A stretch of 64,000 bases of DNA from a virus: the IMG/VR virus record IMGVR_UViG_3300042429_001107; one strand, 5' to 3'. The notes beneath the pieces are model-generated. The model saw only the letters and a program-made list of their open reading frames with translations. It did not search any database and had not been told where the DNA came from. Of this stretch, positions 24,240 through 55,639 are shown one piece after another (the stretch's first letter is position 1; every line of letters begins with the position of its first letter). Position numbers and translations under genes: made by a program.

Positions 24240-25076
24240 ATGAAGAAGATATTAAGCTTTAAAGATTTTTCACTATACGAATATCAAAAATTTGACAACT
24301 CACTATACAATAAAATTAACGAAGCTACATTTACGGACGAGGTGGAGAAAAGAAAATATGATCCGGTAGCTTTCAAAAAAATGAGGGCTGCAGTTTTCTT
24401 TCTAAACGCACAATATCCTTTCTTTGGAGGTCTTTTGTCTAGATTAATCATTAGAGAAAATAGAGGTATAAAAACAATGTGTACTGATGGAGTAAGTATT
24501 CACTACAGCCCAGGATTTGTACATGAACATACTGATGATGAAATAATGTGGGTAATAGCCCATGAGGTTTTACATTGTGCTTTATTACATTTCCTAAGAA
24601 TGCCAGGAAAGGATTCTAAAACAGTAAGTATATGGAATTATGCTACAGATTATGCTTTAAATCAGATGCTTACACCAGTCGATGAATCAAATCCAGGTAA
24701 TCCTAAGCCTAGCGAAAAGAGAGGAGACTCTATAGGTAAAATGCCAAAGGGAGCATTATATCCTGGATGTGGAAGAGTTTCTTACGATAAAGAATTTGTT
24801 GGATTATCTGCTGATAGCATTTATGGTATTTTAATTAAAAATGGATTTCAACCAGATCCGGAAGATTCGCAAGCTGTTAATCCTCCACCACCTCCACCAC
24901 CACCAGCTCCTCCACAGATACCTGTAGTCGGAGATATTATATTCGACCCAGCTAGTGGTAACTACGGTGTGGTAAATAGCGTAGATGAAGATAATGATTC
25001 AGTGGATTATGATCCTATACCAAAATCTAAGGTTCCTGAATATATTAGAAAAAAATACGAGCAAGACAATTTATAA
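24240..25076 (+). CDS. Putative zincin metallopeptidase (DUF2201_N-like), module 1
   Basis: PFFGGLL, TMCTDG, AHEVLHC (HExxH), WNYATDYALN; poly-Pro linker; C-terminal KOW-like segment. Confidence 0.8.
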   Translation: MKKILSFKDFSLYEYQKFDNSLYNKINEATFTDEVEKRKYDPVAFKKMRAAVFFLNAQYPFFGGLLSRLIIRENRGIKTMCTDGVSIHYSPGFVHEHTDDEIMWVIAHEVLHCALLHFLRMPGKDSKTVSIWNYATDYALNQMLTPVDESNPGNPKPSEKRGDSIGKMPKGALYPGCGRVSYDKEFVGLSADSIYGILIKNGFQPDPEDSQAVNPPPPPPPPAPPQIPVVGDIIFDPASGNYGVVNSVDEDNDSVDYDPIPKSKVPEYIRKKYEQDNL

Positions 25077-25085
25077 AATCGTAAT

Positions 25086-26069
25086 ATGAAAACAACAATA
25101 ACCGGAATAAGAATCCAAGAAATGGATCCACCTGCAGGAACGGGAGGAACAGGACCAACTCCGCCACCACCACCTATTGGAGATCCTGAAAACGTTGATA
25201 AATGGAAAGAAGATGAGGATGAGAAAAAAAGGGATCAAGATGGAAAACCAGAAGAAGAAGATGATGAGGATACTTTCGAAAGAGGCTTAACTGGAGGTGG
25301 AGGAACTTCTAATGTTGGGGGAGTATTACCAACAGGATCTCTAGGAGATCTTGGTGGAGATTCTGGATTAAATGGTGAAACATTAGGAGAAGAATGGGAG
25401 ACATCATTAAAAAGATCAGAAAATGCTGGAAACGTACCTGCTTCTGTTAAAAGAGCATTAGATAAATTAAAAAGACCTGTTATTGATTGGAAATCTGAAC
25501 TTGAGAAATATATTGATGATGCAGTATCAAAAACTAAATATAAATTACCTGCTAGAAGATTTATTGGAGGCGGTGATGCTCAATACGGATATAAAAGATA
25601 TAAAGAGGACTTTGAGAACTTAGTGATTGCTATAGACACATCAGGATCTATAACTAGACCTATGATTGAGCAATTTCTTTCAGAGACAATGAAAATTACA
25701 GAGGATTACGCTCCACAAAAAACAGTAATACTTTATTGTGATACCCAAGTTTATGCCCCAGATATTTTAGAACCAGGAGATACTCCAGATTTTAATAAGA
25801 TTGCTGGAGGTGGGGGAACTAATTTTTGGCCTCCTTTTAAATGGGTGGAAAAAAACATACTTGACGTGGGTGAAACCCCAACGGTATTTATATACTTCAC
25901 TGATGGATTTGCAGAATTTCCTAAATCATCCGAATACGGAATAGATGGTTATGATGATAGATGTATTTGGGTATTCTTATCTTTTAATGGAGAGCCTTTT
26001 GGAAACGATCAACCTTTTGGTGAAAGAATAGATATCACACTGGCAAATAAAGAAGTGGAAACTATATAA
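25086..26069 (+). CDS. vWA domain protein (DUF2201-like), module 1
   Basis: IDWKSEL, IDTSGS MIDAS, GGGGTNF, FTDG. Confidence 0.85.
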   Translation: MKTTITGIRIQEMDPPAGTGGTGPTPPPPPIGDPENVDKWKEDEDEKKRDQDGKPEEEDDEDTFERGLTGGGGTSNVGGVLPTGSLGDLGGDSGLNGETLGEEWETSLKRSENAGNVPASVKRALDKLKRPVIDWKSELEKYIDDAVSKTKYKLPARRFIGGGDAQYGYKRYKEDFENLVIAIDTSGSITRPMIEQFLSETMKITEDYAPQKTVILYCDTQVYAPDILEPGDTPDFNKIAGGGGTNFWPPFKWVEKNILDVGETPTVFIYFTDGFAEFPKSSEYGIDGYDDRCIWVFLSFNGEPFGNDQPFGERIDITLANKEVETI

Positions 26070-26107: not shown

Positions 26108-27697
26108 ATGAAAAAAATCTATAACTTTAAAGAATTCGTAAATGAATCTTACAATGTAGACGAAGGGGTATTATCTAATATCGGTAGCAAGATTTCACAA
26201 TGGGCTAAACAGCTTATGACCGCAGTAAGAAATGGCATTATTAGAATGATCTCATCTGGTCCTAAAAAGGGATTACCTGCTTATGTGTTATTTAATTCAG
26301 ATGAAGGATCTATCTCAGATCAAGTTGAAAAATTCTATCGCGGAACACCTTATTATGATATGAACAATATCAATAATCCTTCCGTAGCAAACGAGGCAGT
26401 GATTCCTTTGGAATGGGATAGAGAGGATGATGTACCTAATTCACTTCCCGAAGAAATAGAATCAGATATTAGAAGAAGTCTTAAAGCTTGTTTATCCATT
26501 GCAGATCAAATGGATGCCACAACTGATATGGACGAAAAAGCAAGATTACAAAGGGAATTAAGAAAAGTTAAACCATATTTTATTTATGGAGCACCTGGTA
26601 TTGGTAAAACACAAATCATAGCTAAAATATGCGATGAGCTTGGGTTAAACCTATTGAATTGCGATGGATTAAGTGCAGAACCAGTAGACTTTGCTGGTGT
26701 ACCTAAAGTGGTAGATATTGAAGCTCCATCAGCAGAAAATCCATTAGGTAGGGGGGTTACAAGATCTAACGTAAGTGCGGATATTTTACCATATGATAAC
26801 GGAAAAGGTGGAAAAGGGGGTATCTTATTTATTGATGAATTCAACCGTATGCCTGTTGAAGTACAAAAGATATTCTTATTATTAGCTCAGCAAAGAAGAC
26901 TTGGTGTTAATTATGACATGCCTAATAGATGGTATATCGTAGCAGCAGGAAATAGAAAAGTTGATGACCCTAAGGGTGGTATTGTTGAAATGGGATCTGC
27001 ATTACAGGATAGATTTGAGATTGTCAATCTTATTACTAATCCAGCATCAATGAGAAAATATGTAGAGACTACTCCTGGATTATCTGATATATTCCTACCA
27101 GAACTTCTTGATTTCTTAGATTTTGATGCTAGTTGGTTCCACATGAATGATCCAACTGCTAAGAAATTAAAATACCCTACTCCTAGAGCTTGGGAAGATG
27201 CTTCTAGAGCAGTTAGAAGGGTTCTTCAAGAGTATGAACAAAAAGGAATATCAGAAGTGCCTCATAGCGTATTAGCAAGAGAATTTCAGAAGAACGTAGG
27301 TAGAGATGCTGCTGTAATGTTCTTAGATTTCTATAAGATAGCTCAGCAGATCCCAGTTAAAGAATTATCGCTTCCTTTTACTGATCCTGATAGAGCTCCT
27401 ATTCCTAGTGAATACCAAGGAAAAACTAAAAAATCAGGTACTACTAATAGAACTGATTATGAGCACGCTTTATTCACTGCTGTAATTAGAAAAAGCACGG
27501 AATTACCAAAATTAACAAGCACTGAGTCTTGTAACTTTTCAAAATGGTTAAGAAGAGTTAATGCACCAGAGATGGGAGCAATGGCAATCACATCATTCTT
27601 CCAAAAACATCCTCATTTATTAGAAGATTATGCAACTATGGAATGTTTAGGACCATTAGCTGATCAATGGGGAGCAGAAATTGGAGTTCAATTTTAA
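26108..27697 (+). CDS. MoxR-like AAA+ ATPase, module 1
   Basis: GAPGIGKT, ILFIDEFNR, AAGNR, LQDRF, PTPRAW; GATATATA at 26075-26082. Confidence 0.85.
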   Translation: MKKIYNFKEFVNESYNVDEGVLSNIGSKISQWAKQLMTAVRNGIIRMISSGPKKGLPAYVLFNSDEGSISDQVEKFYRGTPYYDMNNINNPSVANEAVIPLEWDREDDVPNSLPEEIESDIRRSLKACLSIADQMDATTDMDEKARLQRELRKVKPYFIYGAPGIGKTQIIAKICDELGLNLLNCDGLSAEPVDFAGVPKVVDIEAPSAENPLGRGVTRSNVSADILPYDNGKGGKGGILFIDEFNRMPVEVQKIFLLLAQQRRLGVNYDMPNRWYIVAAGNRKVDDPKGGIVEMGSALQDRFEIVNLITNPASMRKYVETTPGLSDIFLPELLDFLDFDASWFHMNDPTAKKLKYPTPRAWEDASRAVRRVLQEYEQKGISEVPHSVLAREFQKNVGRDAAVMFLDFYKIAQQIPVKELSLPFTDPDRAPIPSEYQGKTKKSGTTNRTDYEHALFTAVIRKSTELPKLTSTESCNFSKWLRRVNAPEMGAMAITSFFQKHPHLLEDYATMECLGPLADQWGAEIGVQF

Positions 27698-29873: not shown

Positions 29874-30347
29874 ATGGAAGAAGTAAACGAAGATTGTGGA
29901 TGTGGTGGTACAACTGACAACATCAGAAGTTTTAATACTAATAGTACACCTAGATACTCTCAAGATCCTTTAGTTGGTAGAAGAGTTAGTCTAAGAGACG
30001 GTAGAAGTGGATTAGTTGATGATTCGATTAGAAACAATACAGGAGAAGTAATAGGATATGTAATTGAAGGCGATAGAGGTAACTACAGAGTCTTTAAAGA
30101 TAAAATAGTTGGTCCAATGGAAGAAAGTGGAGGTGCAATGGCATCTTTATCTAGTACACCAGGAATGGGAGATGTGATTCCCCCTGGACCAGGAAGAACA
30201 GGATCTGGTGATCAATTCCCTTCATTAACTGTGGGAACACCTGCAGCTGGAAAGAAAAAGAAAAAGAAAGATTCTAATAAGAATCCTCTTGATTCATCTG
30301 TGATGGATTATAAAAGCTTTCTTACTAATTCAAAAAAGAATCAATAA
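29874..30347 (+). CDS. Hypothetical protein with SH3/KOW-like segment
   Basis: VNEDCGCG start; LVGRRVSLRDGRSGLV...GYVIEGDRGNYRV. Confidence 0.5.
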   Translation: MEEVNEDCGCGGTTDNIRSFNTNSTPRYSQDPLVGRRVSLRDGRSGLVDDSIRNNTGEVIGYVIEGDRGNYRVFKDKIVGPMEESGGAMASLSSTPGMGDVIPPGPGRTGSGDQFPSLTVGTPAAGKKKKKKDSNKNPLDSSVMDYKSFLTNSKKNQ

Positions 30348-31284: not shown

Positions 31285-32691
31285 ATGATAATCGATATAG
31301 AAAATACAGGAGGCGGTTTAACGGTCTCACATTACACCGAAGAAGGTGAAGTTAATATGTTAAAAATCCCAGTACCAAAGGCATTACAATTTGTTTGGCA
31401 AAAGACACAGGATTACGATAAAGCCAAAGATAAAGAATGGCTTTCTTGGGACGCAAAACCTATTAAGAAAGTTTCTTCCACAAAATTTGATAAGTATAGA
31501 GTAGTAGAAATATTAGAAGCTATAGATCCGGAGATAACTAAACCTTTATGGGATTATCAGACTCCGAAAAAATACTTTGTCGATATAGAGGTAGAGATCA
31601 CAGATAATCGTGCAGATTCATTAGACACTGAGAATGCTAAGAATAGAGTGCTTTCAATAGGAATGGCTTCTTCTCACGGAAAGGTACTAGTGATTGGTCT
31701 ACAAGATATGACACCCGAAAGGATTCTTAAAATTGAAAAAAGAATTAAAGAGCATTTTAAAGACCAGGAAGGAGATTGGACATTTAATTATAGGAAGTTT
31801 GAAAGTGAATTTGATATGATGTACACATTTCTTTCTAAGTTAGTTCCAAAAATGCCTTTAATTACTGGATGGAACTGGTTTGGGTATGACTGGCCTTATT
31901 TGATAAACAGAGCTAGGAGATTAGGTATAGATCCTAAAATTGCTTCACCGAGTGGAGTTCTTCTAGGAAAGAATCAAATACCTATGCATGTACTAATGGT
32001 TGACTATCTGGACATTTACAAAAAATGGGATAGGGTAGTTAAGATCAGAGAATCTAATTCTTTAGACTATGTGGCAACTCAAGCAATTGGTATTAAAAAA
32101 ATTGCTTATAATGGAACATTAAAAGATTTATATGAATCTGATTTTGATACATTCATATTCTATAATGCTATTGACTGTGGTCTTGTTCATTATATTGATA
32201 GAAGACTCGATACTCTTTCTACATTCTTTAAAATAGCAGAAGTTAGTAGAGTGGAGATTAATAGAGCACTTTCTCCTGTATGGACTACAGAAGTACTTAT
32301 GTTAAGAAAATTCTTAGAAAGAAAAAGAGTTATACTAAGTGAAAGAAAAGAAGAGAACCACGTAAAATTTGAAGGAGCCTATGTAAAGAAACCAGAGAGA
32401 GGAATTTATGAATGGATCGCTTGCTTTGACTTTGCTTCACTGTATCCTAATACTATGATGCAATGGGGAATTTCACCAGAGGTTTATATAGGAAAGAATC
32501 TAAAAGAAATACCAGAAGGAGCAATTAAGACATCATCAGGAGCAGTATTTTACAGCAAAGAAGGAAAGGAACCTATACTTAGAGAAATATTACAAGGATT
32601 ATACTCGCAAAGGAAAGCAACTAAGAAGAAATATTTTGAATGTGAAAAAGAAATAGAAAAAATTAAAAAAGTAATAAAAACAAAACAATAA
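31285..32691 (+). CDS. Family B DNA polymerase, N-terminal part (3'-5' exonuclease + motif A)
   Basis: Exo I DIEVE, Exo II GWNWFGYDWPY, Exo III YNAID, motif A FDFASLYP; ends in the first fingers helix. Confidence 0.9.
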   Translation: MIIDIENTGGGLTVSHYTEEGEVNMLKIPVPKALQFVWQKTQDYDKAKDKEWLSWDAKPIKKVSSTKFDKYRVVEILEAIDPEITKPLWDYQTPKKYFVDIEVEITDNRADSLDTENAKNRVLSIGMASSHGKVLVIGLQDMTPERILKIEKRIKEHFKDQEGDWTFNYRKFESEFDMMYTFLSKLVPKMPLITGWNWFGYDWPYLINRARRLGIDPKIASPSGVLLGKNQIPMHVLMVDYLDIYKKWDRVVKIRESNSLDYVATQAIGIKKIAYNGTLKDLYESDFDTFIFYNAIDCGLVHYIDRRLDTLSTFFKIAEVSRVEINRALSPVWTTEVLMLRKFLERKRVILSERKEENHVKFEGAYVKKPERGIYEWIACFDFASLYPNTMMQWGISPEVYIGKNLKEIPEGAIKTSSGAVFYSKEGKEPILREILQGLYSQRKATKKKYFECEKEIEKIKKVIKTKQ

Positions 32692-51041: not shown

Positions 51042-52217
51042 ATGGAAGAAATAGATTACATGTCAATGAGCTTAGAAGAGCTCAATCAAAAACTTTCGGA
51101 GTATCAAAAAAAATCTTCGGATTTCTATAATACTGAACAAGGTATTAAGCTAACACTTAACAGTATATACGGAGCGACTGGGAATCAGTATTTTGCTTTG
51201 TTCAATACAGATGTTGCAGAGAGTGTTACATTACAAGGCCAGGACATTTGGAAATTTGCTGAGAAGATAATAAACAGGTATTTCAATGATATGTGGCATC
51301 TTGATACGGAGCTTCACGAAAAAATGGGAGTTCGTAATGTCAGAAAAATAACATTAGACTTTATTATATACGGAGATACAGATTCCAATTATATCAATCT
51401 AGGAGCTGTTATGGATTCTTGTGAATTTGATTCAGATCTAGAACCATTTGAATTTGTAAAAAGACTTAATGAATTTAGACTTAAAGAATACATTAAGAAA
51501 TGCTATGACATCTATTCTGAAAAATGGGGCACAGATAACTATCAGGATTTTGAGCTAGAGAGTTTATCATATGCTGGTATATTCTTGGGTAAAAAGAAAT
51601 ATGTATTACATATAGCTTGGCAGGATCCTAATAAGGATTTATTTCCTAGGCTTTCTAAAGTTAAATCGACTGGTATCGAATTAGCTCAAGGTGGTACTGC
51701 TCCTTTCGCTAGAGAGAAACTTACGTTCTTATTACAGCATATTTTCGAGAAAGGTAAAGCTTTTGATATTAGAGAATTTGTAAAGATCCTTAAGAATATA
51801 AAATCGGAATTTAAGGTACAAAGCCCAGATCAAATATCTGTAGGAACTTCTGTTAATAATATAGAGAAATTCATTGTAAACGACACAACAAAATTCGAAG
51901 TTGCAAAAGGATGTCCAATGCACGTAAGAGCAGCAGGATATCACAACTATCTTCTTAATAATTCCAAGCATAAAGTTAAATACAGCTTAATCAGATCATC
52001 TGAGAAGATTAAGTACTATTATGTTAAGGTAAACAACGAGAGAGAGAATAATGTATTTGGATATCTTAACGGAGCTTATCCCTATGAGCTAGCTCCCCCC
52101 GTAGATTTTGACGAACAATTCAATCGAGTAATTTTAGATCCAATAAATAGATTCATTGAAGCTATGGGATACTCTCCTTTATCACCCAACCTACTTCTTG
52201 TAAGAGCTTTGTTTTAA
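51042..52217 (+). CDS. Family B DNA polymerase, C-terminal part (motifs B, C, thumb)
   Basis: KLTLNSIYG, VTLQGQ, YGDTDS, KKKY, GCPMHVRAA. Confidence 0.9.
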   Translation: MEEIDYMSMSLEELNQKLSEYQKKSSDFYNTEQGIKLTLNSIYGATGNQYFALFNTDVAESVTLQGQDIWKFAEKIINRYFNDMWHLDTELHEKMGVRNVRKITLDFIIYGDTDSNYINLGAVMDSCEFDSDLEPFEFVKRLNEFRLKEYIKKCYDIYSEKWGTDNYQDFELESLSYAGIFLGKKKYVLHIAWQDPNKDLFPRLSKVKSTGIELAQGGTAPFAREKLTFLLQHIFEKGKAFDIREFVKILKNIKSEFKVQSPDQISVGTSVNNIEKFIVNDTTKFEVAKGCPMHVRAAGYHNYLLNNSKHKVKYSLIRSSEKIKYYYVKVNNERENNVFGYLNGAYPYELAPPVDFDEQFNRVILDPINRFIEAMGYSPLSPNLLLVRALF

Positions 52218-52257: not shown

Positions 52258-53757
52258 ATGAAAAATAGTAGAATAAAAAACTTCAATGATTTTGTTAATG
52301 AATCTTACAATCCGGAGCTTAACGAAGGTTTCTTTTCCAGTATAGCTAATCTTATAAAAAAAGTTGGTGGCTGGGCAGGAGAAATGATCAAAGCAATAGG
52401 ACAGGGTTTAATTAAACCAATACCTTCTGGACCAATGAAAGGTATGCCTGTAGCAATGTTATTCTTACCTGAAAATGGGCCTATCTATCAGCAAATGTTG
52501 AAATATCAGCAAGGGATTAATCCTATAATGGAAGCAAGAATACCTTTAGAATACACAGGTGAAGACCAGAGTGTTAGAAACATTTCAGCTGAGCAATTAA
52601 AGAATGACGTAGTTAAATTATATAGGAGTAAAGACAGAGGGGGAAGAGCTAAACCCATCTTTATTTATGGAGCACCTGGTATTGGTAAGACTGAAATAGT
52701 CGGACAAGCAGCAGATGAGCTTGGTGTACCTGTTATGAAGTTGGATCTTCAATTTATGAATCCGGAAGATTTCTTAGGAATACCTAGTAGACATGATATA
52801 ACTCCTGTTGAGGTCGAAGACGGTAAAGTTACTAATTTTGGTAAAGGATTCACTAGAGCAAATCCCCCTGCATTATTACCACCAGATAATGGTAAAGATA
52901 ATAGAGGTGGTATCATATTTATGGATGAGATGAACAGAGCTAATAAAGCAGTTCTAAACTCTATCATGCAATTCGTACAAAAAGGAGAAGTTGGGCCTTA
53001 CAAATTACCAGACAAATGGGTTATTGTTGCAGCGGGTAACAGACCAGAAGAAGCGGAAGGCGTAGCAGATTTTGACTTTGCACTTGCTGACCGTTTCACT
53101 ATTAAGAACTATGTTCCTACAATTGAAGGATATGCTTCATGGGCAGATAAGAACGAAAAAATTCTGCCTGAACTTGTAACATTCTTAACATTTAATCAGG
53201 AGTATTTCCACAATTTAGATGCTGATAAAAAATCATTAAACTACCCAACACCTAGATCCTGGACAGATGGAGCTTTAATTCTTCATGATGAGATAACAGA
53301 TCAAAGAGTTAATACTTGGAGAGATATACCTAGAGAAGAAATTCTTAACATTTTCTATGATCAAGTTGGGCCTCAAGCAGCTGGTAAATTTGTTGCTTAT
53401 CTTGATATACTTAGAAAAGTTAGTGATACAGAGATGGATAATATGATTAACAATCCTGCATCTGCTAAGATGGTTGCTGAAGCACAAGCACCAGGAGGTA
53501 AAAGTATCCTTTATGGGCTTATTGAAATGGTGATGAAAAGAGTAGATTCTTATTCTCCGCAAAGTCTTTATAATGTAATGGAGTACTTTAATAGATATAA
53601 CGAATTAGAACCTCTTAGCTGGCTGTATAAAGATATTCTAGTAAGATACCCAGATTTTAGATTTGGAGGTTCATCATCTACACCAGAAGATGAATTAAAA
53701 CACAAAGCAGCTTTACTAGTAACTGGAGGAGCTAAAAGTAAAGGACTTCAACAATGA
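52258..53757 (+). CDS. MoxR-like AAA+ ATPase, module 2
   Basis: GAPGIGKT, IFMDEMNR, AAGNR, LADRF, PTPRSW; GATATATA at 52230-52237. Confidence 0.85.
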   Translation: MKNSRIKNFNDFVNESYNPELNEGFFSSIANLIKKVGGWAGEMIKAIGQGLIKPIPSGPMKGMPVAMLFLPENGPIYQQMLKYQQGINPIMEARIPLEYTGEDQSVRNISAEQLKNDVVKLYRSKDRGGRAKPIFIYGAPGIGKTEIVGQAADELGVPVMKLDLQFMNPEDFLGIPSRHDITPVEVEDGKVTNFGKGFTRANPPALLPPDNGKDNRGGIIFMDEMNRANKAVLNSIMQFVQKGEVGPYKLPDKWVIVAAGNRPEEAEGVADFDFALADRFTIKNYVPTIEGYASWADKNEKILPELVTFLTFNQEYFHNLDADKKSLNYPTPRSWTDGALILHDEITDQRVNTWRDIPREEILNIFYDQVGPQAAGKFVAYLDILRKVSDTEMDNMINNPASAKMVAEAQAPGGKSILYGLIEMVMKRVDSYSPQSLYNVMEYFNRYNELEPLSWLYKDILVRYPDFRFGGSSSTPEDELKHKAALLVTGGAKSKGLQQ

Positions 53758-54686
53758 TAAGAAAATTAAACGAGAATAAATATAAAACTGGCAAGATAAT
53801 TACTAGTTTTTCTAATTATGTAAGGTTTATAAATGAATCCTATTCTTTTGATCCTGAAGAGGTTAATAGGAAAATTAAAAGAGTAATTCTATGGATAAAC
53901 ATCAATCAAGGATTCTACGGTGAATTACTAAGCCACGTAAATATATTCGGATCATCTAATATTGATCCTAAGACTATGTGCACAAACGGTAGGGATATTA
54001 TATTCCATCCCGAATTTGTAATGAATCAGACAGAAGCAGCATTAAGGTTTGTTCTATGTCACGAAATTCTTCATTGTATAGGAGATCATGGTAAAAGAAG
54101 AGAAAATAGGAATCCCCAAGGATGGAATATAGCTTGCGATTATGCTATAAATCCTCTACTCCAGGGAGAGACAGGATTCGAATGGCCAGTATCAGAGGAC
54201 GGATCTAGAGCAGGTTTATATGATGCTAGATTTGAAGGAATGAGAGCGGAAGATATTTATCAACAATTAGAAGATGAAGGTGCTCTTAATAAACTTATTA
54301 ATGATCCTAATGTTAAAAAACAAACAGATACTGGTAGGGTAGAAGACGAGGATAAAGAACAACCAGAGCCTGACTCTGATCTGGTTATACAAGAAGGTGA
54401 TTTCCCTCAAGAGGATGAACCTGGAGATGAGCCTGGTGATGAGCCCGGAGATGAACCTGGTGATGAACCTGGAGAACCTGGTGACGAGCCTGGAGAACCT
54501 GGTGACGAGCCTGGAGAACCTGGTGATGAGCCTGGAGAACCTGGTGATGAGCCTGGAGAACCTGGTGATGAGCCTGGAGATAATAAAAAACAATTACCTA
54601 GAGTTGGACAGAAAGTTATAACAAAAGAAGGAAAAGAAGGAACTATAACCAAAGTTTATCCTAATGGGGATATAGAAATTAGTTAA
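53754..54686 (+). CDS. Putative zincin metallopeptidase (DUF2201_N-like), module 2
   Basis: GFYGELL, TMCTNG, CHEILHC, WNIACDYAIN; (EPGD)n linker; C-terminal KOW-like segment. Confidence 0.8.
   Translation: MIRKLNENKYKTGKIITSFSNYVRFINESYSFDPEEVNRKIKRVILWININQGFYGELLSHVNIFGSSNIDPKTMCTNGRDIIFHPEFVMNQTEAALRFVLCHEILHCIGDHGKRRENRNPQGWNIACDYAINPLLQGETGFEWPVSEDGSRAGLYDARFEGMRAEDIYQQLEDEGALNKLINDPNVKKQTDTGRVEDEDKEQPEPDSDLVIQEGDFPQEDEPGDEPGDEPGDEPGDEPGEPGDEPGEPGDEPGEPGDEPGEPGDEPGEPGDEPGDNKKQLPRVGQKVITKEGKEGTITKVYPNGDIEIS
54414..54581 (+). repeat. 12-bp and 21-bp tandem repeats encoding DEPG / EPGDEPG
   Basis: GATGAGCCTGGAGAACCTGGT units directly visible. Confidence 0.9.
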
Positions 54687-54691
54687 ATTAT

Positions 54692-55639
54692 ATGTTAATT
54701 AAAGACGGGGATTATTCAGTAATATCTGATAATAAGAATAAAGATAATACACCTGAGACAGGGAATACAACTAATACAGGGAAACCAGAAGGCGGTGATC
54801 CTAATTTTGAAGATACTCCTAAAAAAATGGAAGACATACCTACAGTTGGTAGTGAATCACCTGGGGTAAAAACATTTAGGGATTTTGATACAACTGGTTC
54901 TTCTACACAAAAAGCAAAAGAGGTAAAAGCAGATAAGCCAAGTAAGATATTTAAAGGAGATTTAAAGACACCAAATTGGGCTGATATATCTAATCAGGCT
55001 TTAAGTAGATCTAAGCTATCTGACAAAGCTAAAAGACTGGTAAGGGCTTTAAAAACTAGTGAACCTCTAGTTAATTGGAAAAAAGAATTAAAGAAATTCT
55101 TTGATAATACATTCAAATCTAGCGAATGGGTTTTACCTAATAAAAGATTCCTTGCTGGCGGTGATATGATATACGGTCGTAAAGAAACTGGAGAAGACAC
55201 TTTAAAAACAATTGTTGCTGCTGTAGATACTTCAGGTTCGATTTCGAAAGAACAGGTTAAAGCATTTGTTAATGAGATAATGTATCTATGTAAAACATTT
55301 GATGCTGACAAGACTATAATTATATACTGTAGTGATGATATTGATAATGTTGATATAGTTAAAAAAGGGGGTCAGCCAGATCTCACTAAAATAGCTTCTA
55401 CTGGGGGTAATGATAAAGGATTTATTCCGCCATTCCAATGGGTCGAGAAGAATAAAATAAAGCCATCAATATTTATTTACCTAACAGATACAGGAGGAGA
55501 AATGCCAGATCCTTATAAATATGGAATAAGTAAATATAGAAAGAAAGTATTATGGTTTATATGCTCTCCAGAAATGTACAATCCTCCTTCATTTGGAAAA
55601 ATACTTTTTGCACCAGTTGGTTCTATAAGACCTAAATAA
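54692..55639 (+). CDS. vWA domain protein (DUF2201-like), module 2
   Basis: VNWKKEL, VDTSGS MIDAS, STGG, YLTDTGG. Confidence 0.85.
   Translation: MLIKDGDYSVISDNKNKDNTPETGNTTNTGKPEGGDPNFEDTPKKMEDIPTVGSESPGVKTFRDFDTTGSSTQKAKEVKADKPSKIFKGDLKTPNWADISNQALSRSKLSDKAKRLVRALKTSEPLVNWKKELKKFFDNTFKSSEWVLPNKRFLAGGDMIYGRKETGEDTLKTIVAAVDTSGSISKEQVKAFVNEIMYLCKTFDADKTIIIYCSDDIDNVDIVKKGGQPDLTKIASTGGNDKGFIPPFQWVEKNKIKPSIFIYLTDTGGEMPDPYKYGISKYRKKVLWFICSPEMYNPPSFGKILFAPVGSIRPK

Follow-up and report, generated by a model that had tools for sequence, protein, structure and literature searches.

A KOW/SH3-type barrel apparently split between peptidase and vWA genes: a candidate docking device in a phage motor–protease system

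Two modules with separate peptidase and vWA genes

The 64,000-nucleotide stretch of virus DNA analysed here (IMG/VR record IMGVR_UViG_3300042429_001107; the window) is part of a 148.9-kb contig of 32% G+C, whose genes are those of a large T4-like phage. It carries two paralogous modules, each consisting of a MoxR-type ATPase, a HExxH peptidase and a vWA protein, in the order peptidase, vWA, AAA in module 1 and AAA, peptidase, vWA in module 2. The subject of this work is the junction between the peptidase and vWA genes, where a C-terminal KOW-like unit of the peptidase, the socket, is followed by a short N-terminal peptide of the vWA protein, the plug. The features of the two modules are as follows.

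Module 1
24240..25076, + strand: HExxH metallopeptidase, 278 aa (leader, poly-Pro linker, socket)
24918..25076, + strand: type-1 socket, three strands then a helix
25086..25121, + strand: putative plug, divergent, kept in module-1 relatives, left unplaced by the model
25086..26069, + strand: vWA subunit, without leader
26108..27697, + strand: MoxR-type AAA+ ATPase with leader

Module 2
52258..53757, + strand: MoxR-type AAA+ ATPase with leader
53754..54686, + strand: HExxH metallopeptidase (DUF2201_N), 310 aa (T4-like head-targeting leader, four-residue-repeat linker, socket)
54594..54686, + strand: type-2 socket, KOW strands 1-3, ending at the peptidase stop codon
54687..54691, + strand: 5-nt out-of-frame gap, the proposed cut, at the loop between barrel strands 3 and 4
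54692..54727, + strand: type-2 plug, the first 12 residues of the vWA protein, predicted strand 4 - 3/10 turn - strand 5
54692..55639, + strand: vWA subunit (plug, linker, end of DUF2201_N, DUF2201), without leader

Both ATPases matched AAA_5 (Pfam) and PHROG 1297. The peptidase domain was recognised as DUF2201_N (E 2e-23 and 4e-21 in the two modules) and the vWA-like domain as DUF2201 (E 1e-18 and 9e-15). Relatives of the modules came from viral and metagenome contigs with sizes up to 434 kb, the group as a whole being large bacterial viruses of aquatic origin, and the H, E and H residues of the HExxH motif are invariant across the peptidase relatives. The label 'HNH endonuclease', which PHROG 1314 and several GenBank records give to the peptidase-vWA family, is contradicted by the Pfam domains (24240-26069, 53754-55639).

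As the original prediction held, peptidase and vWA are two genes in both modules, and it had correctly placed the linkers (Pro-rich or repeat), the unit at each peptidase C-terminus and the peptide at each vWA N-terminus. The family is normally one chain, since the DUF2201_N profile is shared out over two open reading frames (ORFs) in each module (5-133 and 192-257 in module 1, 16-159 and 191-258 in module 2) and PHROG 1314 (394 positions) stretches across both. At the module-1 junction a TAA stop is followed by a 9-nt in-frame gap before the vWA gene, and at the module-2 junction the gap is 5 nt and out of frame. The accompanying argument, that no single sequencing error could account for both gaps, was confirmed by related loci, in which the split was seen at 71 of 71 peptidase-vWA junctions (some of them redundant), with 14, 32 and 25 gaps in frames 0, 1 and 2, respectively. 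As every junction is split, with gaps in all frames, the split is neither chance nor sequencing error.

It is highly improbable that the two genes really yield one chain, by sequencing error, stop read-through or frameshifting; the in-frame module-1 gap, with no second stop, would permit this, but the gap lengths and frames rule it out. The gaps in relatives range from 0 to 47 nt (about 150 nt where the mini gene described below is inserted) in three frames, all three stop codons occur, several gaps contain extra in-frame stops, and entire genes sit inserted at the junction. In one locus (L015:3606-3652) a 10-codon ORF inside a 47-nt gap repeats the start (plug) of the downstream vWA gene, and a shorter remnant is present in L016.

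The socket and the plug

We propose that socket and plug are the two parts of a five-stranded KOW/SH3-type barrel that is cut between strands 3 and 4. The socket at the peptidase C-terminus would provide strands 1-3 and the plug at the vWA N-terminus strands 4-5; the plug would fold with the socket, complete the barrel and so tie peptidase to vWA via two flexible linkers (the clasp).

A socket was found at the C-terminus of 59 of 59 distinct split peptidases (42 of type 2 and 17 of type 1), a count that is partly circular as the socket profiles were built from subsets of these same proteins. Two types are distinguished because the module-2 socket (type 2) ends straight after strand 3, whereas the module-1 socket (type 1) runs 21 residues further into what is modelled as a helix. 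The expectation that both modules carry like KOW units held for module 2, which stops at strand 3, and had to be amended for module 1 with its helical extension. The Pfam KOW model (PF00467) matched 23 of the 42 aligned type-2 sockets (best E 3e-9); the socket of the window itself gives no Pfam match alone, yet aligns with sockets that do. Searching 1.84 billion representatives with a socket profile yielded 42 single-match proteins that end no more than 6 residues past strand 3, 21 of them peptidases and the remainder adaptors (see below) and fragments. All other matches were unrelated intact KOW/SH3 proteins that continue into strands 4-5, none of them a peptidase or vWA protein, and no fused peptidase-KOW-vWA protein was among the matches. 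Strands 4-5 are absent from the socket-bearing chain after strand 3, where type 2 stops and type 1 turns helical. No further sockets were found in this genome. A weak KOW-like match (10 bits, E 0.036) at 29874-30347 is internal to a 157-aa ORF rather than terminal.

KOW motifs commonly bind RNA or protein. The three-stranded unit might therefore be an independent binder of RNA, of a host machine or of its own copies, with the vWA N-terminus conserved for translation start or for contact with the ATPase. Such a reading would suit the Pfam KOW model, which spans just ~32 residues, and the resemblance of the module-1 socket and helix to PWWP-like folds, albeit at low Z. It leaves unexplained why the socket is always protein-terminal and missing from every fused form, and why there are genes consisting solely of plug, linker and socket, and we consider it improbable.

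The gene after the socket starts with a 9-residue core (hydrophobic-x-x-x-polar-hydrophobic-x-hydrophobic), a pattern that we take to be strand 4 - 3/10 turn - strand 5 of KOW/SH3 barrels. The idea that the vWA start supplies the last strands of the barrel fits this pattern, although the peptide is better described as strand, turn and strand than as one strand. Identity in the core columns is 0.2-0.86, mostly >0.29, compared to 0.08-0.22 in the linker behind.

Plugs can be told apart by the socket they follow. Gly occupies core position 4 in 31 of 34 plugs behind type-2 sockets and in 2 of 17 behind type-1 sockets, counts that include three wrong plug picks and related sequences. When plugs were picked blind in 13 genes that follow type-1 sockets outside module 1, the expected peptide came up in 10. 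Leave-one-out classification assigned 47 of 51 plugs to their type, a figure that is indicative only, given the same wrong picks and relatedness. A prediction made in advance, that the vWA protein P0155 with its plug of the type-1-associated kind follows a helix-tailed socket, turned out to be correct. This genome holds one module of each socket type, with very different plugs, and three-gene loci hold one socket-plug pair of each type.

Structure prediction scored the complex of the module-2 socket and plug at 0.36, compared to 0.05 for the best control, which is weak support, with the caveat that halves of a KOW/SH3 barrel may pass through their likeness to solved barrels. Of 80 solved complexes 58 attained the mark for a complex, as did 2 of 110 mismatches (at ≤0.60, only 7 of the 80 and both mismatches). 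Contact agreement between runs was at least 91%, and the predicted local distance difference test score (pLDDT) of the partner was at least 61.

Plug-socket genes and fused relatives

A 49-residue gene lies between peptidase and vWA in six loci. It consists of a plug, four residues and a socket, and so presents the barrel in permuted order, with the same strand order as 1tud, an engineered permutant of spectrin SH3 whose chain is opened in the distal loop.

Mini-gene loci: L054:2531-2677, L055, L058, L059, L061, L067

The mini gene is under purifying selection (non-synonymous pN 0.02-0.18, synonymous pS 0.24-0.96). The near-identical loci L056 and L058 differ by it as an exact 151-nt presence/absence unit, which fits an origin by tandem duplication of the peptidase-vWA junction. 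In its model (pLDDT 74, predicted template modelling score 0.53) the three KOW strands are preceded by an N-terminal strand; against 1tud the alignment covers residues 1-49, with Z 3.0 and a root-mean-square deviation of 2.7 for 40 aligned residues, a low score tied with unrelated rows. Foldseek gave no match for this model at E 0.001, with weak KOW rows only; VIA searches gave no Z ≥5 for it or for the module-1 model, and the ESM Atlas no usable match.

Longer adaptors of 115-205 residues are made up of a leader, a plug, a Pro/Gly low-complexity linker and a type-2 socket. They sit after peptidases with a type-1 socket and before vWA genes, and occur in at least four lineages of the tree.

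Adaptor loci: L007:3310-3669, L045, L047, L050, L082-L085, L096, L097, L099, L209:3501-3848, L213:3001-3432

Pairings other than one to one also occur. In L207:2188-4876 a single vWA gene comes after two tandem peptidase genes that each have a type-2 socket at the end, and there are two plugged vWAs per locus in L009, L084, L097 and L099. In L085 (663-1646) the first vWA gene is seemingly broken into two ORFs by a frameshift or assembly error.

Alternatively, each mini-gene product or adaptor might fold up alone into a circularly permuted barrel and be a decoy or an independent domain rather than an extender. The 49-aa protein does model as a self-contained barrel, and folding is known for SH3 permutants with the cut in the distal loop (PMC2965948). 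The long adaptors are difficult to reconcile with this, as their plug is of the kind that follows helix-tailed sockets while their socket is of type 2, such that each end fits the flanking gene and not the other. We regard self-closure as doubtful.

The clasp could also be real and selectively neutral, if the gene was interrupted within a KOW domain inserted earlier, with halves that could still assemble and a break that was never repaired. The extra peptidases, vWAs and extenders would then be by-products of tandem duplication, with no special purpose or specificity. That socket-free fused relatives exist in similar phages implies that the clasp is dispensable, and the presence or absence of the mini gene in near-identical loci is in keeping with neutrality. 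On the other hand, the mini gene and the adaptors either evolve under purifying selection or are kept across lineages, and a single three-gene locus can hold both socket types, with plugs that can be told apart. We regard a neutral clasp as unlikely.

None of nine fused peptidase-vWA relatives contains a socket, and with plug-like scores of -2 to 9.7 at best they stay well below the median plug score of 17. By eye, a 462-kb phage also has a fused, socket-free form. The top plug-like score of the fused set, 9.7, belongs to P0153 (L212:4001-5614), just before the vWA-side region, and may be the remnant of a plug from before a secondary fusion. Seven of the fused proteins group together as a single clade of the vWA tree, nested in the module-2 polytomy, and the other two sit deeper, on long branches.

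Overall, we favour, at a probability of about three in four, the reading that a split KOW/SH3 barrel joins peptidase to vWA and replaces the covalent linker of the one-chain form. The docking by a split mini-domain put forward in the original prediction is well supported for module 2, where the clasp is highly probable given sockets in all of the split but none of the fused peptidases, together with the genes made of plug and socket. For module 1 the clasp is moderately probable and rests on the homology of its socket to type-1 sockets with typical downstream plugs, because its own plug is divergent and was left unplaced by the model.

Several observations weigh against this reading. The AlphaFold2 model of the module-1 junction, built from 5 sequences with the TAA translated as a residue purely for modelling purposes, folds the three strands and the helix but leaves the plug unplaced at pLDDT <50, so that the structure prediction of cognate halves, weakly positive for module 2, did not extend to module 1. 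The module-1 plug scores negative on the type-2 plug matrix. Plugs resemble strands 4-5 of intact KOW relatives weakly (matrix score, p = 0.012, offsets scattered), and the Pfam KOW models do not reach over the plug in read-through junctions. The agreement between socket and plug types is shared through common descent within few lineages; cognate pairing of peptidase and vWA nevertheless appears plausible, confounded as it is by ancestry, and we lean slightly towards it. The tree gives no direction, as monophyly of the split forms withstood an approximately unbiased test (p 0.57), and the fused forms may be either ancestral or secondary. Finally, no intact barrel was found in the linker of any of the fused proteins, and the pre-split ancestor is therefore missing.

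Known systems, packaging and implications

The three-domain system itself is already known. In group 2.2 jumbo phages a MoxR AAA+ ATPase occurs with a metallopeptidase-vWA protein, in which the peptidase is fused to vWA, and a role in virion assembly was proposed (Iyer et al. 2021, PMC7824862). The modules here share with that system the three domains (AAA_5, DUF2201_N, DUF2201; PHROG 1297 and 1314), the gene neighbourhood and the T4-like large phage, but differ in having two genes with socket and plug where there is one fused chain, and in forming two paralogous modules; KOW has 0 occurrences in PMC7824862. In NorQ/NorD and related MoxR-vWA chaperones, too, a vWA protein partners a MoxR hexamer, and the motor stretches the linker to the N-terminal domain of the vWA protein (PMC13036017). 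Unlike the subunits here, NorD is one chain without a peptidase and inserts metal.

The socket fits the KOW motif of KOW/SH3 barrels such as NusG, Spt5 and uL24. Known barrels of this kind are single chains or engineered permutants, whereas the halves here are on separate gene products. Polyketide synthase and non-ribosomal peptide synthetase (PKS/NRPS) docking domains, donor-strand complementation in pili and split inteins are all terminal docking elements. By analogy, the C- and N-terminal elements of consecutive genes would relink in a chainable manner here, too. The clasp would differ from these systems in its SH3-type fold and in the donation of two strands instead of one, and is a member of none. 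Inspection by eye showed no intein motifs at the junction, chaperone-usher genes are absent, and none of the corresponding Pfam families was listed for the six ORFs or the sockets. Searches of the literature, with subscription journals mostly outside coverage, found nothing relevant on a split KOW/SH3 docking unit, a split DUF2201, a permuted mini gene or adaptors; the docking device is undescribed in the literature found.

With NorQ/NorD as a guide, the MoxR hexamer would hold on to the vWA subunit in the way NorQ does to NorD, and the linkers and the clasp would keep the protease attached. The clasp would then lie in the linker equivalent to that of NorD, which is stretched by the motor, and might, more speculatively, be exchangeable or pulled open. 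It would allow protease and vWA to be exchanged, while the two paralogous modules keep their partners apart. The protease may act in head or tail maturation or in the host after ejection.

ATPase, peptidase and adaptors start with a leader, a short N-terminal segment with two spaced aromatic residues and Glu, which by a pattern of our own resembles the T4 capsid targeting sequence. Using this pattern, a leader-like start was found in 38 of 51 peptidases but in 1 of 82 vWAs, against a background of 4.9%. The sole vWA with such a leader (L103:2530-3636) has it placed ahead of the plug. In T4, ten capsid-targeting residues are enough to load a protein into the head (PMC9026906, PMC3012670). As the N-terminus of the vWA is occupied by the plug, it would have to enter the head as a passenger, carried by the leader-bearing peptidase or ATPase. 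For packaging of the vWA through the clasp we judge the odds to be even. In the whole genome 35 of 146 ORFs start with a T4-capsid-targeting-like leader, an unusually large candidate head cargo. Elsewhere in the window the family-B DNA polymerase is seemingly in two genes (31285-32691 and 51042-52217), ~18 kb apart in the ORF list.

More tentatively, and at somewhat less than even odds, the clasp may be a general, chainable and type-specific connector. Orthogonal pairs, extenders born by duplication, and spare peptidases and vWAs would then give interchangeable protease-motor complexes and bring untagged subunits into the head; release by the pull of the ATPase is also possible.

If the proposal is correct, this would be a natural, tiny barrel split over two genes as a docking device. 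Its evolutionary steps would be visible in living genomes, as fused forms without a barrel, split halves, the permuted mini gene, long adaptors and one-to-two pairings. It would also supply a library of candidate affinity pairs of ~30 and ~10 residues, possibly orthogonal and testable with peptides. For the widespread and uncharacterised phage motor-protease system, it would give a handle on which part binds what, and on how an untagged subunit may be packaged.
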